A stretch of DNA of 64,000 bases from Chloroflexota bacterium. GTDB taxonomy: Bacteria; Chloroflexota; Anaerolineae; Anaerolineales; UBA11858. Below are positions 6,460 through 51,471 of the stretch, one piece after another; within the stretch, counting starts at the first letter, position 1, and every line of letters starts with the position of its first letter. The stretch spans positions 1,194 to 65,193 of the forward strand of contig VGOC01000005.1 of the NCBI GenBank assembly GCA_016865865.1, written 5' to 3'. The notes under the pieces are model-generated. The model did no database searches and had not been told where the DNA came from. It saw nothing but the letters and a program-made list of their open reading frames with translations. Made by a program: the position numbers and the translations under genes.

Positions 6460-8081
6460 CGATGATTGGAAGCGAATCCTTGAAGAAGATTCTTGGCGAG
6501 TTTCCTGTTACCGCAGATCTCTACTGGCGGATTATGCAGCAGGCTGATCCTCCAGTGGGGGGGTACTTGCTTGACGACGTTCGGAAGCATCTGCCAACCT
6601 GGCTGGATCAAGCGCGGGCGGCAGAGGTGAAAAGCAATCACCCCAAACGCGTGCTGGTTTTCAGTGTGCTTCGATATTGGCTGGAACATAGCCTGCTCAT
6701 GAGCCTGGCACTGGTGGCTTTTGGACATGAGGTCACGCTGGCCTATTTACCGTATGCTCACTGGAAAAGACCCATCAATCGCTTCGACCTGCGCCGTCAG
6801 GATCTTTATATCAAAAGCATCATCAAGCAAATCGAACCCTTCGTAAGATTGGTCTCGATGCTGGATGCTCCGAAAGCCGACAGGCTGCCTGAAGCGATTA
6901 GCGACCAAATGGCGGCGGCAGCTTTCCGCGATACTCAATACAGTATGCTGCGGGAAGACATCGACACCGATGGCGAGATCTACCGATTGCGCCAGGAGCG
7001 CAACAACGATTATGCCCTGCGAATGTTGGCCTGGATGCAAAATGAACGCCCTGACGTGGTAGTCGTCCCGAATGGCAGCATCCTCGAATTTGGTATTACC
7101 TATCGTCTTGCCCGTTACCTAAACATCCCCGTGACGACCTACGAGTTTGGGGAACAAAACCACCGCATGTGGATGGCACAGAATAATGATGTGATGCGCC
7201 AGGACACCTCGGATTTATGGAATGCGCGCGGCGAGATACCATTGACTGACGTAGAAAAGGAACTGATCTATAATCTATTTTCGTCTCGCCAGGGAGCCAG
7301 TCTGTGGCATACCTTTGCCCGGCGATGGCAGGATGCGCCCAAAATCGGCGGCAGCGCAATACGGCAGGAGCTGGGCCTCGATTTGCGGCCTCTGGCATTA
7401 ATCCCGGCCAATGTGTTAGGCGATAGTCTGGTCCTCGGCCGGCAGCTATTTAGCGAGAGCAATACGGAGTGGTTGAAGCGCACAGTCGAATTCTTTATCG
7501 AGCATCCTGAGGCCCAGTTGGTTATTCGTGTTCACCCGGGAGAGCGCATAGGTTGGGGGTCCTCGGTCTATGAAATCTTAGTGCAACATTTTCAGGAATT
7601 CCCAGAAAATATCCACCTGCTCCCTGCGGAATCGAGCGTCAATACGTATGATTTGGTGGATGCCGCTGACTTTGGGCTGGTCTTCACCACAACCACCGGG
7701 ATGGAGATGGCCATGATCGGAAAACCAGTAATCGTTACGGGCCACACGCACTATCGCGGCAAGGGGTTCACGATTGATCCGAATACCTGGAAAGAGTACT
7801 TCGAAGCCTTGAAACAGGTGCTGTATGACCCCAAGGCTCACACTTTATCTGAAGGTCAGATCGAATTATCCTGGCGCTATGCTTATCGCTTTTTCTTCGA
7901 ATATCCTCAGCCTTTCCCCTGGCGAGTCCCCTATCTTTGGGAGAGCTTGAAGGAATGGAGCATGGCGCGGGTTCTCAGCCCAGAAGGACAGGCCCAATTT
8001 GGGAATACTTTTCGTTATCTGGTTGGCGAGCCGATTGATTGGGCTCGAAGTTATGTAGAAGGTCGGCTGACGAATGAGTGA
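6456..8081 (+). CDS. Capsule_synth-like (KpsC/KpsS-type) GT-B protein; candidate CMP-ulosonic-acid transferase
   Basis: Motifs [23 protein letters not shown] and [25 protein letters not shown] match the Q.xDS / HP / G.EA.l.gkPv pattern of KpsS/KpsC. The ATG at 6456 overlaps the wzt stop (ATGA). Confidence 0.6.
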
Positions 8082-9078
8082 TCATTTACGAGACCATCCT
8101 GTATTTTTATGTGGTTATCCCAGGTCTGGCACCTCCTTAGTGCGCGCGCTATTAGATGGCCATCCTCAGCTTGTCGTATATCCGTTCGAGACTTTCTTTT
8201 TCCGCGGCTTTCTCCCCCAGGCAGCCAGGCGTGACATGGATGGCAAGGTGGAGTTGGCCTCGAGGTACCTCCTTCAATTCGTTGGACTTCGCCACGAGAT
8301 GGAGGAGGATTATGAGCATTTCCATCCCAATGAGGATACCGTCCATGATTTTGCAAAAATGTGTCTCTCCATTCAGCGGCAAATTGCTGCCCATGGCTGC
8401 CGGCACGATGGGGACCTGCTCGCGGCATCAGTCCTGGCTTTTGGAGAAGTGTATGGCTTTCTCCATGAAAATACCCGTTGCTGGCTAGAGAAATCTGTTC
8501 ATAATGAATTCTTTGCAGAACAAATCTTTGGGTGGTGGCCTGAGGCTCGGTGCATTCATCTCATGCGAGATCCGCGCGATGTTTATTCATCGTATCATCC
8601 CAGGCGACAGAAGGTTCTACCCCGCCTGTTTTCGCTCCGTTGGGCGAGAAGCGCCCAAAAAGGGCTGGATAATCAACGGGTTTATGGGGAAGATCATTAT
8701 TACCTGATCGAATACGAACAACTGGCGCAAGACCCTGAAGCAGCTCTTCAGGGGTTGACCCATTTCTTAGGGATCGAAGATCATCCGATTTTACGAATTC
8801 CGTCTTCTATGGGGATTCCATGGGAAGGCAATTCGACCTTCGCAGACAAGTTCGCTGGTATTAGCGCCAGGCCTGTCGAAAGGTGGAGAAAAGAACTGGC
8901 TCGACATGATGTGCAGATCATCGAGCAGATTGCCAGACAACCCATGACAAAGTTGGGTTATCGGGTAGAAAATAAATGGTCATTGTCGACAAGTCTACGG
9001 ATACTGCGCGGGTTTCTCAGTTATTATCGTGATGCAATCGAAAAGATAGACCCGGCGGATATAGATGGTGTTGAATAG
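8074..9078 (+). CDS. Sulfotransferase
   Basis: A 5'-PSB-like loop FLCGYPRSGTSLV and a 3'-PB-like LMRDPRDVYSS. The start overlaps the upstream stop. Confidence 0.8.
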   Translation: MSDHLRDHPVFLCGYPRSGTSLVRALLDGHPQLVVYPFETFFFRGFLPQAARRDMDGKVELASRYLLQFVGLRHEMEEDYEHFHPNEDTVHDFAKMCLSIQRQIAAHGCRHDGDLLAASVLAFGEVYGFLHENTRCWLEKSVHNEFFAEQIFGWWPEARCIHLMRDPRDVYSSYHPRRQKVLPRLFSLRWARSAQKGLDNQRVYGEDHYYLIEYEQLAQDPEAALQGLTHFLGIEDHPILRIPSSMGIPWEGNSTFADKFAGISARPVERWRKELARHDVQIIEQIARQPMTKLGYRVENKWSLSTSLRILRGFLSYYRDAIEKIDPADIDGVE

Positions 9079-9093
9079 GTATCGGATGTAGTA

Positions 9094-9996
9094 ATGGTGG
9101 CCATGGCCGATATAAAACAGCATGTGCGAGAGTTCTACGACCAGGTTGGTTGGCTGGAAGTCAGCGAGGGAGTTTATCAAAACGCTCGCTATGAGGATTT
9201 ACGGCCAGTTTCACGTGAATATATTCATCGTTGCCATCTACGTGTGAGCCGCCACATCAAACCCGAGGGGCGCTACTTCCTCGACGCAGGTTCTGGGCCG
9301 ATTCAATACCCGGAGTATTTGGAGTATTCCAAGGGATACAATTACCGGGTCTGCGCTGATATTTCCTATGTAGCCCTGCAGGAAGCCAGGAAAAGGGTTG
9401 GCGATCACGGCCTGTTTGTGGTCGCCGATGTAGCTAATTTGCCCTTCGCTCCTGAAACTTTCGAGGGCGTTGTCTCATTGCATACGATCCATCATCTGCC
9501 GCAAGAAGAGCATGTTCAGGCATACAGAGAGTTATACCGGGTATTGTCCCCCGGATGTTCGGCGTCGGTTGTCAACGGTTGGGGCGATGCGCTGATCCCG
9601 CGCCTGTTATCGAATCCCATGCGCTGGACGAACCGCTTGCTGGGGGTTGTCAGGCGTTTATTGGGCATTACGCCCACAGAACATCCTGCAAAACCTGTCA
9701 GTATGTCTGATGATAACAAACCCACAAGCACCTTTGTGCGCAAAGATAGCGCCGATTGGTTGAAGGAGCAGCTCGCTACGTTGATGCCAATCGAAATCGT
9801 TGTCTGGCGGGGGATCAGTGTAAAGCACTTGCGCACCTTCATCCATCAGGGATGGGGTGGATGCTATGTGTTACGGTTTTTATTCTGGCTAGAGGAACGT
9901 TTTCCTCATTTCTTCGGAGAGAAAGGTCAATACCCCTTGGTTGTGATCCGAAAAATGAGCTACACAGATGAGTTCACTGAAAGAACTCATGAATGA
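9094..9996 (+). CDS. Class I SAM-dependent methyltransferase
   Basis: Motif I FLDAGSGPIQ, plus ..VADVANLPFAPETFEGVVSLHTIHHL (Methyltransf_11-like). Confidence 0.8.
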   Translation: MVAMADIKQHVREFYDQVGWLEVSEGVYQNARYEDLRPVSREYIHRCHLRVSRHIKPEGRYFLDAGSGPIQYPEYLEYSKGYNYRVCADISYVALQEARKRVGDHGLFVVADVANLPFAPETFEGVVSLHTIHHLPQEEHVQAYRELYRVLSPGCSASVVNGWGDALIPRLLSNPMRWTNRLLGVVRRLLGITPTEHPAKPVSMSDDNKPTSTFVRKDSADWLKEQLATLMPIEIVVWRGISVKHLRTFIHQGWGGCYVLRFLFWLEERFPHFFGEKGQYPLVVIRKMSYTDEFTERTHE

Positions 9997-11019
9997 ATGG
10001 AGTTGCATATGAATTGGAAAGATAAAACTATTCTCGTCACAGGCGGAACCGGGTCCTTTGGAAAAGCATTTTCCAGGATTATGTTAGAGGAATACCAGCC
10101 GGCTAAGTTGATTGTATTTAGCCGGGATGAACTCAAGCAGCACGAAATGAGGGTTTCTGGTTTCGACTACCCCAATATCCGATATTTTATCGGCGACGTT
10201 CGCGATCTACCACGATTGAAGCGCGCCATGCAGGGTGTGGATATCGTCGTCCATGCAGCCGCTCTGAAACAGGTGCCAGCCTGTGAATATAACCCCATGG
10301 AGGCAGTAAAGACCAACATCCTTGGCAGCAGCAACGTGGTTGATGCTGCTCTAGATACTGGGGTTAAAAAAGTTATGGCCTTGAGCACCGACAAGGCCGT
10401 CAGCCCGGTCAATTTGTATGGGGCCACGAAGCTCGCTGCCGAAAAACTAGTGATTCAAAGTAATGCCTACGCAGGAAAGTACGAAACACGTCTGAGTTGT
10501 GTGCGCTATGGCAATGTTGTTGGCAGTCGGGGAAGCGTTGTCCCGGTTTTTCTGAGTCAACGGGCCAATAACGGCAAACTTACCATAACCGACAAACGGA
10601 TGACGCGCTTCTGGCTATCGCTTGAGCAAGGAGTCAGGTTCGTGATCAAGAGCATTGAACACATGTTAGGTGGGGAAGTATTCATTCCTAAGATACCTAG
10701 CATGAAAGTGGTTGATCTGGCTAAAGTCATCGCCCCTGATGCAGAGATAGACATCATCGGTATTCGGCCAGGCGAGAAATTGCATGAGATGCTGATCTCG
10801 CGGGATGAATCTCGCTCGACTATCGAAATGGATGATATGTTCGTCGTTCAGCCGGTCGAAGCCTTCTGGTTTGGTGGAAAATGGAGTGAGAAGGGAAAAC
10901 CTGTTCCTGATGGTTTCCGCTATTCCAGCGCCGAGAATCCAGAGTGGCTTAATGTCGAACAGATCAGAGAGATGATCAAACCTTTCGAGGAGGCGTTTGC
11001 GCAAGGAAAGCTAGCTTAA
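9997..11019 (+). CDS. UDP-GlcNAc 4,6-dehydratase of the PseB/FnlA/CapE type
   Basis: Has KTILVTGGTGSFGKAF, LIVFSRDELKQHEM, GDVRD and NLYGATKLAAEKL. ATG at 10009 is an alternative start. Confidence 0.85.
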   Translation: MELHMNWKDKTILVTGGTGSFGKAFSRIMLEEYQPAKLIVFSRDELKQHEMRVSGFDYPNIRYFIGDVRDLPRLKRAMQGVDIVVHAAALKQVPACEYNPMEAVKTNILGSSNVVDAALDTGVKKVMALSTDKAVSPVNLYGATKLAAEKLVIQSNAYAGKYETRLSCVRYGNVVGSRGSVVPVFLSQRANNGKLTITDKRMTRFWLSLEQGVRFVIKSIEHMLGGEVFIPKIPSMKVVDLAKVIAPDAEIDIIGIRPGEKLHEMLISRDESRSTIEMDDMFVVQPVEAFWFGGKWSEKGKPVPDGFRYSSAENPEWLNVEQIREMIKPFEEAFAQGKLA

Positions 11020-11108
11020 GTATGTTTGCCTTGTATACCTTGCTTACCTGCAGGCTCGATGTGACCTCTGGTTGAGTGAATTGGGTAAATAGTGAATACA
11101 AGGTAAAG

Positions 11109-12029
11109 ATGATGCGAATACTGATAACAGGTACAGGCGGCCTTTTGGGAAGCAACCTCGCTTTAGAAGCCGCCAGCCGCCACACAGTTTTCGGGGTGGA
11201 TAGAAGTTGTCCTCAGAAAACGACTGCTTTCACCCCTATGGTGGCCGACTTGCTAGACCCGGGCGTGGTGGAACGTATCCTGGATGATACTCAACCCGAT
11301 TGGGTGATCCATTGCGCTGCTCAGGCGAACGTGGATGCCTGTGAGCATGATCCAGAGAATGCCCGGAAATTGAATACAGAACTGCCGCGAAAACTGGCGC
11401 ATCATGTCGCCAGGGGCGGAGCGCGCATGTTGCATGTATCCACGGATGCGGTTTTCGATGGACAGAAGGGTGAATATGGCGAGGAAGATCCTCCAAATCC
11501 CCTCAATATTTATGCGCAAACAAAATTAGCTGGGGAATATGGAGTTCTCGAAACATCGCTCGATGCCATCGTAGCCCGGATAAATATCTTTGGGTGGAGT
11601 CCGTCAGGCAGGCGTAGCTTAGCTGAATTTTTCTATAACAACCTGGAAGCCGGTAACCCGATCAAGGGCTTCGTGGATGTTTTATTCTGCCCCTTGTTAG
11701 TGAATGATATAGCCGACCTGTTTCTAAAGATGCTAGATAGGGGATTGAGCGGGTTATATCATGTGGTCAGCAGCGAGAGCATCAGTAAATATGATTTCGG
11801 TGTTGCTATTGCGAGAAGATTCGGCTATGACCCTGATCTCATTACGCCAGTTTCTGTTAGCCAGGCTGGTCTTAAAGCGATCCGCTCTACCAACCTCACC
11901 CTGCGCGTGGATAAACTCATCCACGATTTGGGGGTAGTTCCTCCGGGTTTGTCCCCAGGGATAGATCGGTTTTACACGTTTTATCAACAGGGCTATCCAC
12001 AAATGATACGAACCTTGTGTGCAGAATAA
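11109..12029 (+). CDS. RmlD-substrate-binding-domain reductase (dTDP-4-dehydrorhamnose reductase / FnlB/WbjC-like)
   Basis: Has MMRILITGTGGLLGSNL and YAQTKLAGE. The ATG at 11109 is preferred over GTG at 11076. Confidence 0.75.
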   Translation: MMRILITGTGGLLGSNLALEAASRHTVFGVDRSCPQKTTAFTPMVADLLDPGVVERILDDTQPDWVIHCAAQANVDACEHDPENARKLNTELPRKLAHHVARGGARMLHVSTDAVFDGQKGEYGEEDPPNPLNIYAQTKLAGEYGVLETSLDAIVARINIFGWSPSGRRSLAEFFYNNLEAGNPIKGFVDVLFCPLLVNDIADLFLKMLDRGLSGLYHVVSSESISKYDFGVAIARRFGYDPDLITPVSVSQAGLKAIRSTNLTLRVDKLIHDLGVVPPGLSPGIDRFYTFYQQGYPQMIRTLCAE

Positions 12030-12048
12030 GAATGCAGAGGTCAAAGAT

Positions 12049-13131
12049 ATGAATATTCCCTCCCCTGAAATTACCATAGCTGACCGGAAAGTCGGCCTCA
12101 ATCACCCCACCTATTTCATCGCTGACATCGCCGCCAACCACGATGGCGATCTGGAGCGCGCCAGGTTTCTCATCCGGCTGGCGAAAGAAGCCGGCGCCGA
12201 GGCTGCCAAATTCCAGAATTTCCGCGCCCCCAATATCGTCTCCGATTATGGGTTCAAGTCGTTGGGCGGCCAGCTCTCTCATCAGGCCAGTTGGAAGAAA
12301 AGCGTGTTCGAGGTGTATAGAGATGCCTCGATCCCCTTCGAGTGGACGCCGATCCTCAAAGAGACATGTGACGATGTGGGAATTCACTATTTCTCCTCCC
12401 CATACGACTACGACGCCATTGATATGCTGGCCCCATATGTGCCAGCCTATAAAGCCGGCTCTGGGTTGATGTCGTGGCCTGATGGGCTGGTGCGCATGGC
12501 AAAACTCGGCAAACCCTTGCTGATCGCAACGGGCGCGGCGGATATCAGCGATGTGGTGCGCGCCATGCGGGCGGTGAGGCCGGTCAACGATCAAATTGTA
12601 CTCATGCAGTGCAACACCAATTACACCGCTGCCGACTCGAATTACGATCACCTCAATCTCAATGTGCTCAGGACATATGCCGCCATGTTCCCGGATGTAG
12701 TGTTGGGACTCTCGGATCACACCCACAGCCCGGCGCCGATCGTCGGCGCGATAGCCTTGGGGGCGCGCGTCATCGAACGGCACTTCACCGACGATAACGA
12801 CCGAGAAGGCCCCGACCACAAATTTGCCATGAACCCCGAGAATTGGGCTGAGATGGTTCATCAAGTCCGCACACTCGAGCGCGCATTGGGATCATTCGAC
12901 AAATTCGTCACCGGCAGCGAGCAAGAAACTTACGTGCTCCAACGCCGATGTCTGCGGGCTGCCCGGGAGATCAAGGCTGGCGAAACCATCGCTGAGGATA
13001 TGGTCGAACCCCTGCGCCCTGCCTCTCCAGGCGCGATCATGTCCTGGGAGCTGGACAGACTCGTTGGAAGGAAGGCCCTGGTGGACATGCCGTATGGGAT
13101 GGATATGCGGTGGGAGAATATTGGGGCATGA
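12049..13131 (+). CDS. NeuB/PseI/LegI-family ulosonic (nonulosonic) acid synthase with a SAF domain
   Basis: Has PTYFIADIAANHDGDLERARFLIRLAKEAGAEAAKFQNF, VIERHFT and a C-terminal REIKAGETI (SAF). The ATG at 12049 has a gagg RBS. Confidence 0.85.
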   Translation: MNIPSPEITIADRKVGLNHPTYFIADIAANHDGDLERARFLIRLAKEAGAEAAKFQNFRAPNIVSDYGFKSLGGQLSHQASWKKSVFEVYRDASIPFEWTPILKETCDDVGIHYFSSPYDYDAIDMLAPYVPAYKAGSGLMSWPDGLVRMAKLGKPLLIATGAADISDVVRAMRAVRPVNDQIVLMQCNTNYTAADSNYDHLNLNVLRTYAAMFPDVVLGLSDHTHSPAPIVGAIALGARVIERHFTDDNDREGPDHKFAMNPENWAEMVHQVRTLERALGSFDKFVTGSEQETYVLQRRCLRAAREIKAGETIAEDMVEPLRPASPGAIMSWELDRLVGRKALVDMPYGMDMRWENIGA

Positions 13132-13203
13132 AACGTAAAAAGGTAAACCGTAGAAAGTGATTTCAGTTTCTCGATTACATCTCACGTTTTACGTTTATTC
13201 CAT

Positions 13204-14361
13204 ATGCGTGTCCTTTACTTTACCAGAGACTACACCACCCACGATCACCGGTACCTCTCCGCTTTAGCCAAGACGGAGTACGAAGTTGGATATTTGCGGC
13301 TCGAACATGGGGGGCACGATTTGGATGATCGGCCACTGCCCTCGAAAATCGAGCAAATTTCCTGGATAGGAGGGCGAACGCCTGCCAGGTTGAGTGATGG
13401 GCCGCGGCTGCTTGCCGGTCTTCGAGGGGTGATTCGCTCTTTCAAGCCTGATCTGATTCAAGCCGGCCCCTTGCAGCGTTCTGCTTTCCTGGCAACATTG
13501 ACCGGCTTTCACCCCCTGGTGAGCATGTCGTGGGGTTATGATTTGCTGATGGATGTCAATCGAAACCGTTGGTGGGAGTGGGCTACTCGATATACGCTTC
13601 GACGGAGCGACGCCCTGGTGGGGGACTGTGATACCATTCGTAATCTTGCCATTCGATATGGCATGGCGCCAGAGCGGATCGTTACCTTCCCGTGGGGCGC
13701 GAATATCGAGAAATATTCGCCCGGTGACGATGGCGGGCTGCGCGAACGTTTAGGGTGGGGCGAGGATGCTTTTGTGCTGCTCTCCACCCGAGGTTGGGCG
13801 CCGATCTATGGCATTGATGTCCTGGCCCATGCTTTTATCAGGGCTGCGCGCCAGCGCCCGGAACTACGCCTGCTGATGTTGGGGAATGGGCCGCTGGCGC
13901 CACAAATCCGCCAGATTTTTATGCAGGCGGATTTCCTCGACCGGGTACATTTTCCCGGGCAAATGAACCAGAAGGATCTGCCGAATTATTATCGGGCGGC
14001 AGATTTATACATCAGCGCATCTCACAGCGATGGCGCGTCTATTTCTTTATTGGAAGCCCTGGCCAGTGGCAAGCCTGTACTGCTCTCTGATATTCCTGGG
14101 AATCAGGAGTGGGTATCCCCCTCGTCCCCGGCTCCCGCTTTGCGCGCCGTTGGCGTCTCTCAGGGAGAGGGGAGTCGGGTCGGCTGGTTGTTTCGGGACG
14201 GGGATGTGTCCTCTCTCACCGAAGGCATTCTCGGGGTCGTGGATCATCGGGAGCAGTTACCCGCTATGGGCGTAGCAGCCCGCCAATTGGCAGAATCACG
14301 CGCGAATTGGGAAGAGAACTTCCCAAAACTGTTCGAGGCTTATCGAATCGCTTTTACGTGA
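13204..14361 (+). CDS. GT4-family glycosyltransferase carrying an about 22-aa in-frame insertion
   Basis: ASHSDGASISLLEALASGKPVLLSDIPGNQEWV....GWLFRDGD shows the EX7E region interrupted by SPSSPAPALRAVGVSQGEGSRV. Confidence 0.85.
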   Translation: MRVLYFTRDYTTHDHRYLSALAKTEYEVGYLRLEHGGHDLDDRPLPSKIEQISWIGGRTPARLSDGPRLLAGLRGVIRSFKPDLIQAGPLQRSAFLATLTGFHPLVSMSWGYDLLMDVNRNRWWEWATRYTLRRSDALVGDCDTIRNLAIRYGMAPERIVTFPWGANIEKYSPGDDGGLRERLGWGEDAFVLLSTRGWAPIYGIDVLAHAFIRAARQRPELRLLMLGNGPLAPQIRQIFMQADFLDRVHFPGQMNQKDLPNYYRAADLYISASHSDGASISLLEALASGKPVLLSDIPGNQEWVSPSSPAPALRAVGVSQGEGSRVGWLFRDGDVSSLTEGILGVVDHREQLPAMGVAARQLAESRANWEENFPKLFEAYRIAFT

Positions 14362-14389
14362 TATTTTTAGCCATCGCATGTATGGAGGC

Positions 14390-14502
14390 AACTACTCAGC
14401 CAAACGGAGAAATTCCCGAAAAAAGGGTGTGCGTGGGGGTGCTGCGCACCCCCACGCACACCCTTTTTTCGGGCTAATCCGTTCGATGACTGAGCAGTTA
14501 CG
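14390..14502. mobile_element. 113-nt MITE-like palindromic element, copy A
   Basis: Identical to 61536-61648 except for the 3-nt loop. It has a perfect 28-bp stem, cccgaaaaaagggtgtgcgtgggggtgc / gcacccccacgcacacccttttttcggg, and imperfect outer inverted repeats aact.ctcag. Confidence 0.75.
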
Positions 14503-14516
14503 TATGGAGTGCCGTT

Positions 14517-15287
14517 ATGCTTACGAAAAACGATCTCATCGAAGAATTTCAAACTATTGGTGTAGAAGCCGGCGACTCCTTGCTGGTTCACAGCTCGTAC
14601 AAGTCGTTCGGCGGCGTTGAGGGCGGCCCGCAGATTGTCATAGATGCCCTGTTGGATGTCCTCGGCGACGAAGGCACGCTCATCATGCCGACCTTCAATT
14701 TCGATTTCTGCACAGGAGAACCCTGGGATGCGCGCGAAACGCCTTCCCACATGGGGGTCATCACCGAACTGGTTCGCAAAGACCCTCGCAGCCGCCGCGT
14801 TTTCCACCCCATCTATTCATTTGCTATCATCGGAAAACAGGCTGAATTCTTGACCAGAGAACGCTATAAGAGCAGTTATGGGCGCAATTCATTGTTTGGT
14901 AAACTGCGTGAACTCGACGGCAAGATCATGGTGATCGGTTTGCGTTATAACGACAGCATGACCTTTTTCCATCATGTCGAAGAACTGGAAGGGGTGGATT
15001 ATCGCTATCTAAAAACTTTCACCGGCATGGTCACAGATGAAGATGGCAACACCTATGAAGATTCCTTCCAGATGCTGGTGCGCGATATCGAAAAAGGCGT
15101 GGAAACGATGGTTGACCCTATGGGCGCATTGGCGGAAGAAGCTGGCGTCATCGCCGTGCGCCAGGTCGGTCAGGCGAAAGTCTCTCTCATGAAGGCCAAC
15201 GCGATCTACGACTTCACTGCCCGCGAAATGCGCCGCGACCCCAAATTACTCTATCGCATCGCCTCTCCCGACCAACCAGCCAACTAA
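14517..15287 (+). CDS. AAC(3)-family (Antibiotic_NAT fold) N-acetyltransferase; a sugar N-acetyltransferase is the likely role here
   Basis: LIEEFQTIGVEAGDSLLVHSSYKSFGGVEGGPQIVIDALLDVLGDEGTLIMPTFNF is the typical AAC(3) N-terminus. Confidence 0.8.
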   Translation: MLTKNDLIEEFQTIGVEAGDSLLVHSSYKSFGGVEGGPQIVIDALLDVLGDEGTLIMPTFNFDFCTGEPWDARETPSHMGVITELVRKDPRSRRVFHPIYSFAIIGKQAEFLTRERYKSSYGRNSLFGKLRELDGKIMVIGLRYNDSMTFFHHVEELEGVDYRYLKTFTGMVTDEDGNTYEDSFQMLVRDIEKGVETMVDPMGALAEEAGVIAVRQVGQAKVSLMKANAIYDFTAREMRRDPKLLYRIASPDQPAN

Positions 15288-15303
15288 CAAACTAACCAAC
15301 CCC

Positions 15304-16620
15304 ATGCAACTAAAACCTCTCCTCGAAAGAATCTACCCCCTTCATCGCACACTGGCCTCTGATGGCCTGGATGAAGCCTTGCGTATTGTAGGTGAGGCTA
15401 TGCCCGCCTCGGCGGGTTATGCTATCGAAACCTACAGGCCGGGCGATTCCATCTGGACATGGCGGGTGCCAGAACGCTATGTGGTTCATGATGCATCTCT
15501 CGAAACGGATCGTGGTCAGCGAGTGATCAATTTTGCTCACAACCCGCTTCACATCGTTTCATATTCGCTGCCCGTAGACAGAACACTCACCTGGGACGAA
15601 CTGGAGCCGCATCTTTTCTATTGCGAAGAGCGTCCCTGGGCGATCCCCTGGCACTTCAATTACTACCAGCGAGATTGGGGTTTTTGTCTCTCGAAAGAGG
15701 TATTCGACAATCTCCCGCGGGATGTCCGGTATCGGGCGGTGATCCGCTCGGAGTTTCTTGCAGATCCCAACGATGGCGGCTTTCGTGTGGGGGCGGGAGT
15801 GTTGCACCCCGAGGGTGGGCCTGTTTCCGGGGTTGGAGAATTGCTGATCTCGGCGCATATCTGCCATCCTATGCAGGCCAATGATGACGCCGCTGGGGTG
15901 GTCACAGCGGTCGAAGTTGCCCGGCGGCTGGCCGAAAATCCCTTGCCTCCCGGCTCGATGAGTGTGCGCTTCTGGTTTGGCCCTGAAACCATCGGCACGA
16001 TCGCTTATCTGGCTCACAACGAAGACCTGATCCCCAGGTTGAAGGGCGGCGTCTTCATCGAAATGACCGGCAACAATAACACCATCGCCTGGCACCATAC
16101 CCGTCAGCATACTCATTTATTAGATCGAATTACGCATTACGTTTTACGCAATATGGATCACATCGAGCGCAACTTTGCCGACTTCCCCCCCAATGACGAA
16201 CGCGTCATCAACGGTCCCGGCGTCAATGTTCCCTGCATTTCGATCAATCGCTGGCCTTACGACGAATACCACACCACCGATGACAACCCCGGCATCATCC
16301 ACGAAGAAATGCTCCAGAGCGCAGCCGATATTGTCGAGGAGATCGTGCGCATCTACGCATCCAATTTCATCCCCAAACGAAAATTCCGCGGCCCGCTTTT
16401 CTTATCGGGCAATGATCTCTGGGTGGATTGGCGGGAGAATTTCGATCTCAACCGCTCGTATGAAAAAATCATGATGCGGTTCGAGGGCCAGCACAGCCTC
16501 TTCGATATCGCCGAGGAGGTGGGGTTGGATTACTGGGTCGTGCGTGCGTATGTCGAAAAATATCGAGTGAAGGATTTTATCGAAGCGCTTCCTATCCCCA
16601 GCGAGGCGCCAGATTTTTAA
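15304..16620 (+). CDS. Aminopeptidase-like (M28-like, DUF4910-type) domain protein with a C-terminal winged helix
   Basis: Size and layout fit, with a C-terminal HSLFDIAEEVGLDYWVVRAYVEKY. This family recurs in polysaccharide loci and its function is not established. It contains a heptamer-repeat segment at 16127-16154 (RITHYVLRN). Confidence 0.6.
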   Translation: MQLKPLLERIYPLHRTLASDGLDEALRIVGEAMPASAGYAIETYRPGDSIWTWRVPERYVVHDASLETDRGQRVINFAHNPLHIVSYSLPVDRTLTWDELEPHLFYCEERPWAIPWHFNYYQRDWGFCLSKEVFDNLPRDVRYRAVIRSEFLADPNDGGFRVGAGVLHPEGGPVSGVGELLISAHICHPMQANDDAAGVVTAVEVARRLAENPLPPGSMSVRFWFGPETIGTIAYLAHNEDLIPRLKGGVFIEMTGNNNTIAWHHTRQHTHLLDRITHYVLRNMDHIERNFADFPPNDERVINGPGVNVPCISINRWPYDEYHTTDDNPGIIHEEMLQSAADIVEEIVRIYASNFIPKRKFRGPLFLSGNDLWVDWRENFDLNRSYEKIMMRFEGQHSLFDIAEEVGLDYWVVRAYVEKYRVKDFIEALPIPSEAPDF

Positions 16621-19276: not shown

Positions 19277-19279
19277 AAA

Positions 19280-30603: not shown

Positions 30604-30720
30604 GGTTTACACTTCAAGTCATTGATATCGTTGTACTGAGTATTATACGGCTGTTGCGGATTGTCCGAAAGGGGCGCCCATAGAAATTTCGAACTTTGCA
30701 GAAACAAAAGAACAGGTAGC

Positions 30721-32329: not shown

Positions 32330-32403
32330 GTTGGCGTAAACCATGTTATGATTTCGCCCCGCCGGCTTTATGGTCGGCGTTTTCGTTGTCACAAAATAAT
32401 TCT

Positions 32404-34229
<1,826 letters not shown>

Positions 34230-35062: not shown

Positions 35063-35067
35063 CTCCG

Positions 35068-39354: not shown

Positions 39355-39368
39355 TCCTGGCCGATATT

Positions 39369-43020: not shown

Positions 43021-43049
43021 GAGTATAATTCGAAAATTAGGTAGAAAAT

Positions 43050-44749: not shown

Positions 44750-44779
44750 CCAGCAATCGTTTAGCGACTCGACAAAAAT

Positions 44780-45538: not shown

Positions 45539-45571
45539 CGTTCGAACGTAAAACGTGAAACGTCAAGAGCA

Positions 45572-46399: not shown

Positions 46400-46408
46400 T
46401 GTGAACCC

Positions 46409-47914
46409 ATGTTAGGCGGCCATAGTCCAGGTCACTCTAAATGGGCGTTGGGGATAGCAGGGGTCGTTGTTTTCACCTTCGGCCTGCTCGTCCGCCTAGT
46501 TGACCTGACTGATCCACCTTTGGATTTCAATCCTACCCGTCAACTGCGTTCGGCGATCATCGCCCGGGGCATGTATTACGGCAGCCAGCCCGAAGATGAC
46601 GCCTTGCATCGGCAGCTTGCGCTGACTCATTGGAAAATGATGGAACGATTGGAGCCGCCGCTATTGGAATGGGTAGTGGCTTCTACATATCGTTTGATCG
46701 GTGGAGAGCAAGTCTGGGCAGCGCGCATCTATACGATTTTCTTTTGGTTGATTGGCGGCGCGGCGCTGCATGATTTGGCGCGCCGAATGGCTTCTCCCTT
46801 GGGGGCGCTGGTGGGCGTTGGCTATTTTTTCTTCTTGCCTTTCAGCATCCTGGCCAGTCGTTCTTTTCAGCCAGACCCGGGCATGATTATGTTGATATTA
46901 TTGACGGGCTGGTCATTATGGCGATGGGCGGAGAAGCGCACCTGGCGATGGGCGCTTTTGGCGGGGGTCTTTGGCGGCGCGGCGGCCTTTGTCAAAGCCA
47001 TGGGTATCTTCTTTGTGGGGGGGATGGCTGCGGGAGTAGTTTTATACAATCTTGGGCTCGATGCTCAGGCATCCCTGATCACTGATTCGAAATGGCAGGT
47101 CAGGAACCTGAAATTTGGGCTTCGAGATCTCCAGGTTTGGGTCATGGCTGGACTGATGGTAACTCCGGCCTTACTCTATGCTGTGCTGGGGGCTGATGAA
47201 CAATCCTCGCCGCAAATCCTGCATTGGACAGTCTTGTCGCGCTGGCAGGATGTTTTGAGCCTGTCTTTCTATATGCGTTGGATGATCCGCGTCAGCAGCC
47301 TTATGGGGCCGGGCGTTGTCCTGGCCAGCTTTATCGGCGCGCTGCTGATTCCGCCCAAAAGCCGGGCATTGTTGTGGGGCTTTTGGATTGGATATGGCCT
47401 GTATGGCTTGACATTCCCCTACCATATCGCCACCCATGATTATTATCATCTGCCCCTTTTGGCCGTGGTATCGCTATCCCTCGCTGTACTGGCAGGCTTC
47501 ATTGCAGAAAAAGTGTGGGAGCAGGGCAGACTCACCCGTGTATTGTTCATCGTGGTGGCTCTGATCGCCGCGATCTACAACGGTTGGATTGGACGCTCGA
47601 TATTGGTTGGACAGGATTTCAGCCAGCATCCGGCGTATTGGCAGGAAATAGGGGATTCTTTTCCGGCGGATGCCAAAGCGGTTGGGGTGACGCAAGATTA
47701 TGGCTTTCGCCTGATGTATTACGGCTGGCGCACGATTAAGCTCTGGCCGTCAGGCGCCGGCAGCGAGAATTTCGAGGAGCAGGTTGGTGAGGCGGATTAT
47801 TTCGTCGTCACTGCCTTGAACCAGCTCGATTCCGATTTGAAAGAGTATCTCGCCGCCCAGTACCCCATCTATGCGGAGGGGATAGGGTATATCATTTATC
47901 ATCTGCGTCCCTGA
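46409..47914 (+). CDS. GT-C-like (ArnT/PMT_2-like) membrane glycosyltransferase, tandem paralog A
   Basis: 501 aa, polytopic, with LDFNPTRQLRSAIIARGMYY and SFQPDPGM. It is collinear with the next gene. Confidence 0.62.
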   Translation: MLGGHSPGHSKWALGIAGVVVFTFGLLVRLVDLTDPPLDFNPTRQLRSAIIARGMYYGSQPEDDALHRQLALTHWKMMERLEPPLLEWVVASTYRLIGGEQVWAARIYTIFFWLIGGAALHDLARRMASPLGALVGVGYFFFLPFSILASRSFQPDPGMIMLILLTGWSLWRWAEKRTWRWALLAGVFGGAAAFVKAMGIFFVGGMAAGVVLYNLGLDAQASLITDSKWQVRNLKFGLRDLQVWVMAGLMVTPALLYAVLGADEQSSPQILHWTVLSRWQDVLSLSFYMRWMIRVSSLMGPGVVLASFIGALLIPPKSRALLWGFWIGYGLYGLTFPYHIATHDYYHLPLLAVVSLSLAVLAGFIAEKVWEQGRLTRVLFIVVALIAAIYNGWIGRSILVGQDFSQHPAYWQEIGDSFPADAKAVGVTQDYGFRLMYYGWRTIKLWPSGAGSENFEEQVGEADYFVVTALNQLDSDLKEYLAAQYPIYAEGIGYIIYHLRP

Positions 47915-47920
47915 CCCGGA

Positions 47921-47998
47921 CTAGATCAAGAAAAGATCGAAAGCCCGTCCCCGGGCGACCCGAGGACGGGTCTTTGATCCTCTTTTCGTGAAGTATTG
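47921..47998. repeat. Nested-palindrome REP/terminator-like element, copy 3 (reverse complement of copy 2)
   Basis: ctagatcaagaaaagatcgaaagcccgtccccgggcgacccgaggacgggtctttgatcctcttttcgtgaagtattg. Confidence 0.75.
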
Positions 47999-48018
47999 AT
48001 TATCGTTATGGAGGCAGA

Positions 48019-49530
48019 GTGGACCTGAACTCAGAGCGTTTTTTCGATCGAAAATGGTTATTGTGGGTAGTCGTTGGTCTGGCTTTCGTCCTGGGCCTGG
48101 GGATTCGCGCTTACGACATCACAGATCCACCTTTCGACTTCCACGCCACTCGACAACTCCGTGCGGCTGTGATCGCTCGAGGTATGTATTACCAGGGTCT
48201 GGAGGACGCCCCCGAATGGCAGCGTCAACAAGCCGATATGGCCTGGCATGAAGAAGCGATCATCGAACCGCCGGTGATGGAACGCCTGGCGGCCTGGGGT
48301 TATCAGTTGGCTGGCAGTGAACAATTATGGATACCGCGTTCATTATCGGCGATATTCTGGTGTCTTGCGGGATTGGCGGTATGGCTCCTGGGGCGAGAGT
48401 TAAGCGCCGCTGATGGCGGAGTACCGGCGATATTCTACTTTCTCTTTCTGCCTTATAGCATCTACGCCACGCGGACTTTTCAGCCAGACCCTTTGATGGT
48501 GTGCCTGATCGCCTGGTCGTTATGGGCTGTCTCTCGCTGGCATCGGGAGCGGACGACGCGGATGGCGATTGTTGCCGGAGTTTTGGGCGGCCTGGCGATC
48601 TTCGTCAAGACCGTGGCGATCTTTTTCGTGGGGGGAGCTTTCATTGGCCTCATCCTCTTGGGCGCAGGTTTGGCCAAAGCCATCCGGGATAAGCAGGTCT
48701 GGCTGATGGGACTCTTGACCATATTGCCCACCAGCCTGTTCTACGTTTACGGATTGTGGATTGCAGGTTTTCTTCAGCGACAACTCAGCTACCGCTTTTT
48801 CCCGAGTTTATGGTGTGACCCTGCTTTTTATATCCGCTGGCAGGAAATGGCTACGAACATCTGCGGTTATGGGACGTTGTTGGCCGCCCTCGCTGCCCTG
48901 TTTCTGGTTCGGGATAGAGGCAAACGAGGGTTTCTCGCTGGCCTGTGGATCGGATATGGTCTGTACAGTATGACCTTTGCATATCATACCCTGACGCATG
49001 ATTACTACCAACTCCCGTTGATCCTTGTCATTAGTGTATCGCTCATTGCAGTGGCTGCTGAACTTTTGAAAGCCATTGCCGCGATCGAGAAAGGTCTCTG
49101 GGTGCGTCTTTTTATTGTCTTATTGCTCTTTGCCGGGGCTGCTTTCAAGATATGGGATGTGCGCGTAAACCTCATCCGGGATGACTACCGCGGCGAGGCG
49201 GCTTTTTGGGAAAAAGTCGGCGGCCTGATCGAACCTGGGGCGCGGGTGCTGGCGATGAGCCAGACGTATGGAAATGCGCTGAGTTATTACGGCTGGACGC
49301 CGAATGATTCCTGGGCCAGCGAAGGCGATATCAATTTGCGAGTATTAGCAGGCGCGTCTGCAGAAGATATCGAACAAAGCAGCTATGCCGCCATAGAACA
49401 TTACGATTATTTCGTGATCACGAAAGTTGGAGAGTTCGACGATACGCCTGAACTCAAAGAACTACTGTATAATAACTATACTGTGTTTGCGGAGGGGGAG
49501 GATTATATTATTTTCGACCTTAGACCGTGA
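48019..49530 (+). CDS. GT-C-like membrane glycosyltransferase, tandem paralog B (GTG start)
   Basis: Has FDFHATRQLRAAVIARGMYY and TFQPDPLM. A ggagg RBS precedes the GTG. The C-terminus ..YIIFDLRP resembles ..YIIYHLRP in paralog A. Confidence 0.62.
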   Translation: MDLNSERFFDRKWLLWVVVGLAFVLGLGIRAYDITDPPFDFHATRQLRAAVIARGMYYQGLEDAPEWQRQQADMAWHEEAIIEPPVMERLAAWGYQLAGSEQLWIPRSLSAIFWCLAGLAVWLLGRELSAADGGVPAIFYFLFLPYSIYATRTFQPDPLMVCLIAWSLWAVSRWHRERTTRMAIVAGVLGGLAIFVKTVAIFFVGGAFIGLILLGAGLAKAIRDKQVWLMGLLTILPTSLFYVYGLWIAGFLQRQLSYRFFPSLWCDPAFYIRWQEMATNICGYGTLLAALAALFLVRDRGKRGFLAGLWIGYGLYSMTFAYHTLTHDYYQLPLILVISVSLIAVAAELLKAIAAIEKGLWVRLFIVLLLFAGAAFKIWDVRVNLIRDDYRGEAAFWEKVGGLIEPGARVLAMSQTYGNALSYYGWTPNDSWASEGDINLRVLAGASAEDIEQSSYAAIEHYDYFVITKVGEFDDTPELKELLYNNYTVFAEGEDYIIFDLRP

Positions 49531-49548
49531 GGTTATTTGCCCTACGCG

Positions 49549-51471
49549 ATGAAACCACTCGTTTCGATTGTCACTCCCTCTTATAACCAGTCCCAATATC
49601 TGGAAGACACCATTCGCTCGGTTTTGGCCCAGGATTACCCCAATATCGAATATGTCATCGTAGATGGAGGTTCCACCGACGGCAGTGTAGAGATCATCCA
49701 GAAATACGCCCATCGTCTCTCCTGGTGGGTCTCGGAGCCGGATAAAGGCCAGGCGGACGCCATCAACAAAGGGCTGAGACGGGCTCGCGGTGAGATCGTA
49801 GCCTGGTTGAACTCTGACGATGTCTATTTCCCAGACGCCATCTCTCAAGCTATGGATGCTTTTCAAGCCCACCCCGAGGTGGGGATGGTGTTTGGCAACG
49901 CCATCTCGATGGATTCCCAGGGCTACCCCCTCCATAACCAGGCTTTCGGAGATTGGGGCCTGGATGAGTTGATGTGTTACAACATCATCTGCCAGCCGGC
50001 TGTTTTCATGCGCAAGGAAGCCCTCCAGCAGGCTGGATTTTTGGATCAGTCTTACCACTATTTGCTGGATCACCACCTCTGGTTGCGCATCTTTGACATG
50101 GCTGGCGCGAAGCATGTCCCCTCGATCTGGGCTGGCGCCAGGCATCACCTCGAAGCCAAGAACGTGGCCAAGGCCGCCGAGTTTAGCGCGGAAGTGTTCA
50201 GGATTCTCGATTGGATCCAAGAACAGCCATCCCTCGAGGCGCGCACGAAGAAACTCAAACGCCGCATCCTGGGCGGCGCCTACAATATCAGCGGTCGGTA
50301 TTTGCTCGAAGGGGGCTTGCCAGGCCCGGCCGTCAAAGATTACTGGCGGGCGACTTTCAAAGACCCTACCCTCCTCAAATTCTATTGGCACCGGATGATC
50401 TATGCCTACCTCAGTCTGATGGGTTGGAGCGGCACAGCCGAATGGTATTACTCGCTGATGACCCATTTCCGGCCCGACGTGGGTGAGGATCCCCGCCTGA
50501 AGACCTGGCCAGGCATAAAGCTAGATGGCAGGAGCACCCCCATCCTGATTACCGGTGTGCATCGTTCTGGCACTACCTGGGTTGGCAGAATGATCGCCGC
50601 CAGCAGCGATGTCATCTATTTGAGCGAACCACTCAATATCTGGCACCGGCCCGGGGTGATGCGCACCCCCGTCGAGTACTGGTATCAATATATCTGTGAG
50701 GAAAACGAAAAGGCCTTCCTTCACGCCCTGCAGGACACTTTGGAGTATCGTTATCACTTCGGCACAGAACTGTTTTCCATCCGCTCGGTCAAGGATGCCG
50801 GGCGTATGGTGCGCGACATGGGGCGCTTCCTCAAGGGCAACCTCTCCCATGCCCGCCCCTTGCTCAAAGACCCCTTCGCCGTGTTTTCTAGCCCCTGGTT
50901 TTCCAAACGCCTGGGGTGCAAGATCGTCATTGTGGTTCGTCACCCCGTCGCCTTCGTCAGCAGCCTCAAACGCCTGGGCTGGACCTTCGACTTCAAAAAT
51001 ATATTAGATCAGACCTTGTTGATGCGCGACCACTTATCTGCGTATGAACAGGAAATGGAAAGGATGTTGGATTTCCCGGAGGATATTATTGGACAGGGAA
51101 GCCTGCTGTGGCGCATGGTTTATGATGTCGTGGATCGCTATCAGGTCACTCATCCGGAGTTTGTGGTGGTGAGGCATGAAGATATTTCTCTTCGCCCCCT
51201 GGCGGGATACCAGCAAATGTACCAGACTTTGGGGTTATCTTTTACCCCGTGGGTGCGCCGTTCGATCATGAGATCATCAGAAGGAAGTAACCCCTCCGAG
51301 CAGCCGCGCCAAAAAGAATTTTCGACCCAATTGGATAGCCGGGCTAACCTGTTGAATTGGCAGCATCGCCTCACCAGGGACGAAGTTGCCCGGGTGAAGG
51401 AGCTGACTTCTGACATCGCCGGAAAATTCTACACCGATGAAGAGTGGCAGCAGTGGACAGGCAGCTCCTAG
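49549..51471 (+). CDS. Fusion protein: GT2 glycosyltransferase plus a C-terminal sulfotransferase domain
   Basis: The N-terminus has [22 protein letters not shown] and [11 protein letters not shown]. The C-terminal part (about 50540 onward) has [18 protein letters not shown] and [13 protein letters not shown]. Confidence 0.75.

Follow-up and report, generated by a model that had tools for sequence, protein, structure and literature searches.

A surface-glycan locus with four sulfotransferase domains and an embedded PAPS synthase in an uncultured Anaerolineales (Chloroflexota) bacterium

The window, a 64,000-nt stretch of a metagenome contig from an uncultured Anaerolineales (Chloroflexota) bacterium, contains at positions 1–52265 one glycan biosynthesis locus, which lies on the plus strand. 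Pfam searches and motif inspection identified four sulfotransferase domains and an intact PAPS-making enzyme in this ≈52-kb surface-sugar locus. Other Pfam matches include a Wzm/Wzt transporter with a Wzt_C domain, a GDP-mannose dehydratase, two NeuB synthases, three CTP_transf_3 genes, two Capsule_synth genes, GT2 and GT4 genes, and several methyltransferases. Four PMT_2 genes lie within the locus, and a fifth (58555–60696) belongs to a second cluster. Pfam found no sulfate permease, CysQ or CysH in the window, and the locus yielded no initiating phosphoglycosyltransferase.

The predicted glycan exporter consists of the ABC-2 permease Wzm (4234–5139; ABC2_membrane, E = 6e-18) and the ATPase Wzt (5173–6459; ABC_tran, E = 5e-22), which has a C-terminal Wzt_C carbohydrate-binding domain (E = 4e-8, 34 bits against a cut-off of 30.4). 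The next gene, Kps1 (6390–8081, with the true start likely near 6456), encodes a KpsC/KpsS-like GT-B transferase that scored 32.3 bits against the Capsule_synth cut-off of 20. It also matched KpsC (6mgd, E = 3e-5), in an alignment that places NVLGD on the QVESD nucleophile motif and VIRVHPG on the HP motif. The order wzm–wzt–Kps1 is kept in about 50 metagenome contigs. The usual next gene is a SAM methyltransferase of the type found here at 9094–9996 (Methyltransf_11, E = 2e-16), which directly follows Kps1 in 37 of 54 related contigs; the first sulfotransferase, ST1, fills that slot in only seven of the 54, and an ST2-like gene does so in two more. ST1 is an accessory insertion.

All four sulfotransferase domains proposed in the initial annotation scored above the curated Pfam cut-offs. 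These are ST1 (8074–9078; Sulfotransfer_3, E = 2e-27; Sulfotransfer_1, E = 2e-11), ST2 (26981–28024; Sulfotransfer_3, E = 1e-23; Sulfotransfer_1, E = 4e-13), ST3 (41166–42071; Sulfotransfer_1, E = 7e-9, 35.9 bits against a cut-off of 22), and ST4, the C-terminal part of a fusion protein, GT2::ST4 (49549–51471). ST3 starts at the ATG at 41166 rather than at the earliest in-frame start (40974), in agreement with a JGI gene call of 301 aa. GT2::ST4 starts at the ATG at 49549, in a frame open from 49537, and has an N-terminal GT2 domain at residues 10–126 and the sulfotransferase domain at residues 334–623 (≈50536–51405; Sulfotransfer_3, E = 1e-10; Sulfotransfer_1, E = 6e-8). Of its 150 best representatives at 50% identity, only three had both halves, while 56 were stand-alone sulfotransferases of ≈310 aa.

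The 5'-PSB and 3'-PB motifs were found where they had been reported, and read PRSGTS, ARSGTT, PKSGTH and HRSGTT, and RDPRD, RDGRD, RDPRD and RHPVA, respectively, in ST1 to ST4. They start at residues 16 and 165 in ST1 and at residues 55 and 169 in ST2, and a conserved Ser follows each 3'-PB motif, as in RDPRDVYSS. Both motifs occurred together in only four of the 45 locus proteins, namely ST1–ST4, and in none of 500 shuffles; the pattern was built from these same four proteins, and Pfam provides the independent test. All four are genuine sulfotransferase domains. Since pairwise identity among ST1–ST4 is at most 26%, they are distinct enzymes rather than recent duplicates, and this divergence makes the multi-site sulfation suggested earlier plausible.

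The fused ATP sulfurylase/APS kinase in the middle of the locus (32505–34229) is likewise intact, with all three Pfam domains present (PUA_2, E = 9e-46; ATP-sulfurylase, E = 7e-83; APS_kinase, E = 2e-63). Its closest match is the bifunctional SAT/APS kinase of Aquifex aeolicus (2gks, E = 3e-235), with which it aligns over its full length, and its motifs are kept (16 protein letters not shown, the kinase P-loop, LDGD and SPYR). The two proteins share the same three-domain architecture with all catalytic motifs aligned, but differ in genomic context and in the physiological consumer of PAPS, the gene described here being embedded among sulfotransferases. A terminator-like hairpin (32360–32379) lies just upstream. 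The PAPS synthase is followed, after only 11 nt, by an SDR gene (34241–35062), a CMP-sugar synthetase (CTP_transf_3; 35047–35823) and a NeuB::AP_endonuc_2 fusion (35886–37775), all assigned by Pfam, which form a putative CMP-ulosonic-acid pathway. Every relative that bears the cluster has them in this same order.

Each of the four sulfotransferase domains is tied to a glycosyltransferase-type protein, by translational coupling or by fusion. The sequence has 8-nt stop/start overlaps between Kps1 and ST1, X and ST2, and Kps2 and ST3, and the fourth coupling is the GT2::ST4 fusion. X (25543–26988) has no Pfam match of its own; it is a GT-B-fold protein, weakly similar to TagB/TagF, with an AF2 model of pLDDT 82.6 and an LIRLHP motif. 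A fold search returned generic GT-B matches, including UDP-GlcNAc 2-epimerases, and some X homologs carry PF04464, with the JGI label "CDP-glycerol glycerophosphotransferase". Kps2 (39518–41173; Capsule_synth, 30.4 bits against a cut-off of 20) is a second KpsC/KpsS-like GT-B transferase, with motifs NVVFD and VIRAHP, and aligns with Kps1 at 98% probability in hhalign. Among its 5338 homologs, those with a named source were all labelled as Chloroflexota/Anaerolineae MAGs. Kps2 and ST3 remain neighbors in six genomes, and X and ST2 in two; in a third genome, L005, the latter pair is ≈130 nt apart.

A core cassette of PAPS synthase, SDR, cytidylyltransferase, NeuB fusion, KpsC-like transferase and sulfotransferase is conserved across some 17 species-level genomes of Anaerolineales, as well as in other contigs from metagenomes. 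The full cassette reads X–ST2–GFO–PAPS synthase–SDR–cytidylyltransferase–NeuB fusion–Kps2–ST3–GT2–cytidylyltransferase–2-hydroxyacid dehydrogenase, and was counted whole or in part around the PAPS synthase in the 17 genomes, some of whose contigs are short. Their PAPS synthases share 73–90% identity with the copy in the window. ST2 orthologs (43–76% identity) lie near the PAPS synthase in seven genomes, and the GFO/IDH/MocA oxidoreductase (28028–29029; Pfam) keeps its place between ST2 and the PAPS synthase in 14 loci. The cassette was also present in four contigs found through Kps2 homologs (59–62% identity), some with four sulfotransferases within 17 kb. Outside this group, sulfotransferases flank the fused sat-cysC in Acidobacteriota and Binatia loci as well.

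The initial annotation regarded such a gene set as unusual for a prokaryotic glycan, which overstates the case, as precedents exist in Vibrio sp. KMM 8419, Cobetia marina KMM 1449 (PMC11766843) and the synechan cluster. In the Vibrio strain, an ABC-transporter capsule cluster carries three sulfotransferases along with a second copy of cysNDC, a combination that the authors describe as a hallmark of sulfated polysaccharide synthesis (PMC11641403), and capsules whose sulfation is chemically proven go together with polysaccharide clusters that hold both PAPS genes and sulfotransferases (PMC11641403, PMC11766843). The Vibrio and Cobetia clusters share with the present locus the ABC-transporter dependence, the embedded PAPS-biosynthesis genes, several sulfotransferases among glycosyltransferases, and Capsule_synth genes of the KpsS/KpsC type. 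However, they use cysDN/cysC, to which Cobetia adds cysQ and a sulfate permease, and the Vibrio set is a proven second copy, whereas here there is a single Aquifex-type sat-cysC fusion without cysQ or permease. They also differ from our locus in their exporter (KpsMTED instead of Wzm/Wzt with Wzt_C), their non-Chloroflexota hosts, their lack of a one-to-one coupling of sulfotransferases to glycosyltransferase-type genes, and their sugars, which are Rha, Glc or Man, while those here are apparently nonulosonic/ulosonic acids. Their products have been chemically characterized; the product here is predicted from genes.

The cyanobacterial synechan (xss) cluster, with its own sulfotransferases, produces a sulfated extracellular glycan (PMC13125312). 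It resembles our locus as a bacterial polysaccharide cluster carrying sulfotransferases, which we infer to be unrelated in sequence to ST1–ST4. Synechan is made by a Wzx/Wzy-type pathway, and to our knowledge its cluster has no embedded PAPS synthase. Rhizobial NodPQ with NodH/NoeE also combines locus-embedded sulfate activation with carbohydrate sulfotransferases, but NodPQ is a duplicate of the CysDN/C type rather than a sat-cysC fusion, and the sulfate goes onto a lipochitooligosaccharide instead of a polymer. Kps1 and Kps2, both above the Capsule_synth cut-off, resemble the retaining β-Kdo glycosyltransferases KpsC/KpsS (GT107) and WbbB (GT99) (PMC10148158, PMC9587256), but the QxxxD motif invariant in those enzymes reads NxxxD in both, and in these proteins of 550–560 aa the N-terminal half is long and unrelated. 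A sulfotransferase gene comes after each of them, an arrangement of which we found no description for KpsC, KpsS or WbbB in the literature examined. WbbB caps the O antigen with a terminal β-Kdo (PMC9587256), and by analogy Kps1, whose gene comes right behind those of the ABC transporter, might attach a similar residue at the end of the chain.

By its gene content, the locus probably specifies a sulfated cell-surface glycan rich in ulosonic/nonulosonic acids. The analysis establishes the domain identities, intact motifs, gene coupling and conserved synteny; that sulfation takes place, that it falls on glycan residues, and on which of them, is inferred. We considered the possibility that the sulfotransferases merely share an operon with glycan genes and act on a membrane lipid, on protein tyrosines in a TPST-like manner, or on a small metabolite. 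The nearest solved relatives of ST1 are indeed the CurM/OLS polyketide sulfotransferases and TPST1/2, not carbohydrate sulfotransferases, the PSB loop has Arg instead of Lys in three of the four enzymes, as is also the case in TPST, and acceptors cannot be read from sequence. However, the four couplings to glycosyltransferase-type proteins, the lack of Pfam matches to lipid, polyketide or peptide biosynthesis genes in the 52-kb locus, and NCBIfam matches of ST1 and ST2 to the Nod-factor sulfotransferase NoeE, weak and far under cut-off, make non-glycan acceptors unlikely. It is highly improbable that sat-cysC came to lie here accidentally, functionally unconnected to the sulfotransferases, although the initial annotation had offered a chance location as a simpler explanation. 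In this genome a variable low-GC segment (29026–32329) does lie between ST2/GFO and the PAPS synthase, but the corresponding gap between GFO and PAPS synthase in L005 is only ≈170 nt and gene-free, and the recurrence of the neighborhood down to 59% Kps2 identity effectively refutes a coincidence. Because the cassette recurs across relatives, the PAPS synthase and the sulfotransferases are functionally linked.

This linkage falls short of showing the dedicated PAPS supply claimed earlier. There is a considerable, though less than even, chance that sat-cysC is the general sulfate-activation enzyme of the cell, ancestrally located here, with the sulfotransferases being one among several users of its product. 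In the best 80 genome loci, no assembly yielded a second fused copy, a count that covers the fused type in incomplete MAGs. Orthologs with 69–79% identity in sister lineages lie beside aconitase/SecA/TauE or other non-glycan genes, and in a rough NJ tree the embedded and non-embedded copies interleave, as expected of one orthologous lineage. The protein is highly conserved (78–92% identity over ≈120 clusters), and the cultured Chloroflexota strain ZRK33 assimilates sulfate, with CysC and CysH in the published model and in related MAGs (PMC11005417). On the other hand, CysH and sulfite reductase are absent nearby, both here and in cluster-bearing relatives, a CysH-like gene accompanies the fused gene in only three of the best 80 loci, and the 11-nt spacing to the ulosonic-acid genes belongs to a conserved arrangement. 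Given that the best 80 loci hold no second fused copy and that the orthologs lie in housekeeping contexts, this PAPS synthase is probably the only one of its type in the cell and may also serve other needs, which is compatible with, and not exclusive of, its supplying a sulfated glycan.

In the proposed pathway to this sulfated glycan, GT2, GT4 and KpsC-like transferases would build the chain in the cytoplasm from a GDP-6-deoxyhexose and two or three CMP-activated ulosonic acids. The fused Sat-CysC enzyme would make PAPS from sulfate and ATP, and the four divergent sulfotransferases would sulfate different positions or residues. Each of them is coupled to the likely producer of its acceptor (Kps1 for ST1, X for ST2, Kps2 for ST3, and GT2 for ST4). 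Methyltransferases would decorate the product further, Wzm/Wzt would export it, and PMT_2-type GT-C enzymes may modify it further outside the membrane. This gene arrangement is familiar from marine bacteria and cyanobacteria, and is described here for the phylum Chloroflexota, where it had not been described previously.

The first part of the window (1–52265) is a single plus-strand glycan locus from an uncultured organism that is known from metagenome contigs only; contigs identical to this one are present in two JGI metagenomes (3300020603 and 3300020083) and two SRA assemblies. The plus-strand gene order starts with an HTH regulator, an epimerase, a GDP-mannose dehydratase and a GDP-fucose-synthase-like gene. 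These are followed by the exporter genes Wzm and Wzt (4234–6459), the latter with a Wzt_C domain, then by a Capsule_synth gene (Kps1, 6390–8081) that leads into the sulfotransferase gene ST1, and a methyltransferase. Next come PseB-like, RmlD-like, NeuB, GT4, Antibiotic_NAT, DUF4910/M28 and cytidylyltransferase genes, and then methyltransferases, GT2 genes and unknowns. The central part holds a GT-B-fold gene (X, 25543–26988) leading into ST2, GFO (28028–29029), a variable low-GC segment, and, again on the plus strand, the PAPS synthase, an SDR, a cytidylyltransferase, a NeuB::AP_endonuc_2 fusion, a PMT_2 gene and a second Capsule_synth gene (Kps2, 39518–41173) leading into ST3. The locus ends, on the same strand, with GT2, cytidylyltransferase, 2-hydroxyacid dehydrogenase, SDR and MptE-like genes, two PMT_2 genes, the GT2::ST4 fusion and a further GT2.

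Several regions of the locus have features of their own. The first nonulosonic-acid module (9997–17483; PseB-like, RmlD-like, NeuB and cytidylyltransferase) has no DegT-type aminotransferase and carries instead an Antibiotic_NAT acetyltransferase and a DUF4910/DUF2172/M28-like protein, a pair that recurs in three relatives' loci (L005, L162 and L163). A 742-aa unknown protein (21212–23440), encoded in a T-rich stretch, is probably a membrane protein. The variable low-GC (0.48) segment at 29026–32329 contains a reverse-strand GT-C-like gene (LA_3751/3752 family, weak match) together with two ORFs, one methyltransferase-like and one SH3-like; it is missing in L005, where no gene separates GFO from the PAPS synthase ≈170 nt further downstream. 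Four PMT_2/ArnT-like GT-C paralogs, three in the locus (37768–39354, 46409–47914 and 48019–49530) and one beyond it (58555–60696), together with GT2 genes resembling polyprenyl-phosphate sugar synthases, suggest extracytoplasmic glycosylation steps.

Four sulfotransferase domains, as proposed in the initial annotation, were confirmed by Pfam, with scores for ST1–ST4 of 97.1, 85.2, 35.9 and 42.5 bits against curated cut-offs of 27, 27, 22 and 27. ST1 (8074–9078) matched Sulfotransfer_3 (E 2e-27) and Sulfotransfer_1 (E 2e-11), as did ST2 (26981–28024; E 1e-23 and 4e-13), while ST3 matched Sulfotransfer_1 (E 7e-9). The open frame of ST3 spans 40974/41166–42071, with the true start at ATG 41166, in agreement with a 301-aa JGI gene call. 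In GT2::ST4 (49537/49549–51471), a GT2 domain occupies residues 10–126, and Sulfotransfer_3 and Sulfotransfer_1 matches cover residues 334–623. The PAPS-binding motifs were found in all four ORFs where they had been placed. The 5'-PSB loops read PRSGTS, ARSGTT, PKSGTH and HRSGTT in ST1–ST4, and the 3'-PB motifs read LMRDPRDVYSS in ST1, IVRDGRDAAIS in ST2 and IYRDPRDVVVS in ST3. The 3'-PB of ST4 diverges most, with RHPVA in place of RDPRD, so that both Asp residues are missing. In this enzyme class, a 5'-PSB of the P-K/R-S-G-T-T type lies near the domain N-terminus and a 3'-PB (R-x-x-x-D/x ... S) follows ≈85–150 residues downstream. With a search pattern derived from the window sequences themselves, the pair was found in ST1–ST4 only (4 of 45 locus proteins), and in none of 500 shuffles. 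Pairwise identity among the four domains is ≤26%.

The PAPS synthase (32505–34229) combines PUA_2, ATP-sulfurylase and APS_kinase domains in a single chain. A full-length alignment to 2gks, the bifunctional SAT/APS kinase of Aquifex aeolicus (E 3e-235), shows every motif of both active sites to be intact (QxRNPxHxxH, GRDHAG, the kinase P-loop, LDGD and SPY), as expected for the bifunctional ATP sulfurylase/APS kinase family. The domains, alignment and motifs thus bear out the embedded fusion enzyme. Among the matches listed, the named relatives were Chloroflexi, Anaerolineae or Anaerolineales MAGs (78–92% identity). A promoter and terminator scan around the gene gave counts at chance level, with a lone notable hairpin at 32360–32379.

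The initial annotation read this gene as a dedicated PAPS supply, and offered as the simpler explanation that sat/cysC was located here by chance. Species-representative genomes were searched first with the PAPS synthase and then, by tblastn and blastp, with the window proteins. In 17 species-level genomes of Anaerolineales, some of them represented by short contigs, the PAPS synthase is surrounded by all or part of a recurring module (X–ST2–GFO–PAPS synthase–SDR–cytidylyltransferase–NeuB fusion–Kps2–ST3–GT2–cytidylyltransferase). The PAPS synthases of these genomes are 73–90% identical to the window copy, and the gene tables of two module-bearing genomes confirmed the module. The same core was present in four more contigs found through Kps2 homologs (59–62% identity), flanked to left and right by one or two sulfotransferases, up to four of them within 17 kb. 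This recurrence rules out chance placement: the PAPS synthase is not in the glycan locus by accident. Pfam annotation of the ORF sets around non-cluster PAPS synthases was noisy, and a CysH motif scan and phmmer were used instead. Of 80 loci, only 3 had a CysH-like gene in the flanks of the fused sat-cysC. With ST1–ST4 as phmmer queries, sulfotransferases were found beside the fused type in Acidobacteriota and Binatia loci as well.

Exclusivity of the PAPS supply fared less well. No second fused sat-cysC was detected in the same assembly, every assembly appearing once among the best 80 loci, and in sister Anaerolineales the orthologs (69–79% identical) lie in housekeeping contexts, such as aconitase/SecA/TauE. 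A rough NJ tree does not separate embedded from non-embedded PAPS synthases, which interleave in a pattern that fits a single orthologous lineage whose ancestral position may have been inside the locus. Because of the single occurrence per assembly among these loci, the housekeeping orthologs and the interleaved tree, 32505–34229 may be the only enzyme of the fused type that supplies the cell with PAPS, and the term "dedicated" is not borne out. Searches of the glycan locus (1–52265) found no cysQ, sulfate permease, CysH or initiating phosphoglycosyltransferase, and neither cysQ nor a sulfate permease was found anywhere in the window.

The relatives' loci showed some variations on the cassette. 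A fusion of NeuB with a xylose-isomerase-like TIM barrel (AP_endonuc_2; 35886–37775 in the window) is kept in all of them, in every case two genes 3' of the PAPS synthase, and its sugar product may be an unusual ulosonic acid. In L161 (ERZ25039514 contig_80029), several genes of the cassette, among them the PAPS synthase and the NeuB fusion, are broken into fragments, owing either to indel errors in long reads or to decay of the cassette. Tandem sulfotransferase pairs flank the cassette on both sides in L162 and L163. Between Kps2 and the sulfotransferases, these two loci also contain a carrier-protein (PP-binding) gene, an adjacent 401–423-aa gene (no Pfam match in L162, a weak tRNA-synt_2b match in L163) and a GNAT acetyltransferase, which hint at additional acyl or aminoacyl decoration. 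A TauE/SafE-family permease, absent from the window, adjoins the PAPS synthase in some relatives (L007 12109–12858; context of P0470) and may be a sulfate or sulfite transporter partner.

The sulfotransferases are closely coupled to their upstream genes. ST1, ST2 and ST3 each overlap the stop of the preceding gene by 8 nt (ATGAGTGA, ATGATTAA and ATGAATAA). The Kps2–ST3 adjacency is retained in six genomes and that of X and ST2 in two (L006 and L014), with a gap of ≈130 nt in L005. ST4 is fused to its GT2 domain. Such fusions were seen in only 3 of 150 representatives and are therefore not a widespread architecture; stand-alone relatives of ≈310 aa are common among the representatives. There were no Kps2–sulfotransferase fusions among the 120 Kps2 homologs listed.

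Kps1 and Kps2 matched Capsule_synth with 32.3 and 30.4 bits, respectively (cut-off 20), and are homologous to each other (hhalign probability 98%); X had no match. An HP motif, the His of which protonates the CMP leaving group in retaining β-Kdo glycosyltransferases, is present in all three proteins (VIRVHPG in Kps1, VIRAHPD in Kps2 and LIRLHPT in X). In the GT99 and GT107 families of these enzymes, an invariant QxxxD motif carries the Asp nucleophile (PMC10148158). Kps1 aligns NVLGD over the corresponding QVESD of KpsC (6mgd) and Kps2 has NVVFD; the Asp is kept and Gln is replaced by Asn. An equivalent of this Asp is absent from X. The donor of these families is CMP-β-Kdo; in the locus, three CTP_transf_3 and two NeuB genes suggest CMP-ulosonic donors.

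We considered X as a divergent KpsC-like protein, but hhalign gave a probability of only 3% against the Kps2 family and 38% against Kps1. A PDB sequence search with X returned no match, and Foldseek with its confident AF2 model (pLDDT 82.6) retrieved generic GT-B proteins, headed by UDP-GlcNAc 2-epimerases, MshA and BshA. These results do not establish X as a "third Kdo-type transferase". Some X homologs carry PF04464 (TagB/TagF); this weak similarity, the GT-B fold and the HP motif are all that stand.

A metagenome scan with Kps1 identified a conserved core (HTH–epimerase–Fcl–Wzm–Wzt–Kps1–methyltransferase–PseB–RmlD–NeuB–GT4) in ≈50 contigs. The next gene 3' of Kps1 was a methyltransferase in 37 of 54 contigs and ST1 in seven; the others had an unknown gene (seven), an ST2-like sulfotransferase (two) or PseB (one). 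ST1 is thus an accessory insertion in a slot mostly filled by the methyltransferase, and the predicted sulfation there is therefore a lineage-specific decoration. Kps1 lies directly 3' of ABC transporter genes with a Wzt_C domain, and WbbB puts a terminal β-Kdo residue on an O antigen (PMC9587256). It is therefore an attractive, though unproven, idea that the glycan might end in a modified cap.

Beyond the glycan locus, a low-GC (0.47) region at 52632–54260, between two glycan clusters, carries an N6/N4 DNA methylase and a ThaI-like restriction endonuclease ORF of 159 aa that covers profile positions 1–120 of 203 and may be truncated. At 54739–64000, a second ABC-transporter glycan cluster begins. 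Its products include a WbdA/WbdD-like protein of 1243 aa, which joins a methyltransferase to GT4 domains, a PMT-like GT-C protein of 713 aa, another ABC-2 permease (61679–62506) and, probably, the cognate ATPase, encoded by the next ORF (from 62645).

The initial annotation called multi-site or multi-residue sulfation unusual for a prokaryotic glycan. The principle of PAPS supply and sulfotransferases inside a polysaccharide cluster is not new. Two marine bacteria with chemically proven sulfated capsules combine PAPS genes and several sulfotransferases in ABC-transporter polysaccharide clusters. In Vibrio sp. KMM 8419, the cluster has three sulfotransferases besides a second copy of cysNDC, and a locus that unites PAPS genes and sulfotransferases with glycosyltransferases and an ABC exporter is a stated hallmark (PMC11641403). 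The cluster of Cobetia marina KMM 1449 includes cysNC, cysD, cysQ and a permease (PMC11766843), and cyanobacterial synechan clusters contain sulfotransferases (PMC13125312). The window locus shows the same hallmark as the Vibrio and Cobetia clusters, but, unlike Cobetia, lacks cysQ and the permease and, unlike Vibrio, has no second PAPS gene set of the fused type among the best 80 loci. It further differs from the published clusters in its Chloroflexota host, Aquifex-type PAPS fusion and Wzm/Wzt exporter, in the tight linkage of the PAPS synthase to ulosonic-acid genes, and in the pairing of sulfotransferases with GT-type genes. Our literature search turned up no account of sulfated glycans in Chloroflexota, or of sulfotransferases as biosynthetic genes there, and nothing specific on sulfated glycans, nonulosonic acids or sulfotransferases in Anaerolineae. 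A mat metagenome study detected no PF13469 sulfotransferase in its two Chloroflexi MAGs (PMC9723792). In the EPS of granular sludge, abundant sialylation and sulfation co-occur, and the responsible sulfotransferases were not found (PMC10483923).

The interpretation of the initial annotation is thus partly supported: the four sulfotransferase domains and the PAPS synthase stand, and the supply may or may not be exclusive. The locus probably directs a sulfated, ulosonic-acid-containing surface glycan, with PAPS made in situ and four coupled sulfotransferases decorating distinct sites. A more specific reading, which we regard as unlikely, is that the ulosonic or nonulosonic acid residues of this Anaerolineales glycan are themselves O-sulfated. 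Three KpsC/TagF-like transferases, probably using CMP-linked donors, would then each work with their own sulfotransferase. The Kps1–ST1–methyltransferase trio, because it directly follows wzm–wzt, may produce a terminal cap that bears both sulfate and methyl groups, and the carbohydrate-binding domain of Wzt would read this cap as an export signal. If true, this would be the first genetic basis of sulfated sialic-acid-like sugars in bacteria and a candidate source of the "sialylated and sulfated" EPS of anaerobic granular sludge (PMC10483923). The sat-cysC–SDR–cytidylyltransferase–NeuB fusion–KpsC-like–sulfotransferase cassette offers a conserved, easily recognised genetic marker with which the production of sulfated glycans could be traced in a widespread group of filamentous bacteria, and the way in which each sulfotransferase is paired with one transferase could help to assign the acceptor specificity of bacterial carbohydrate sulfotransferases, enzymes of biotechnological interest.
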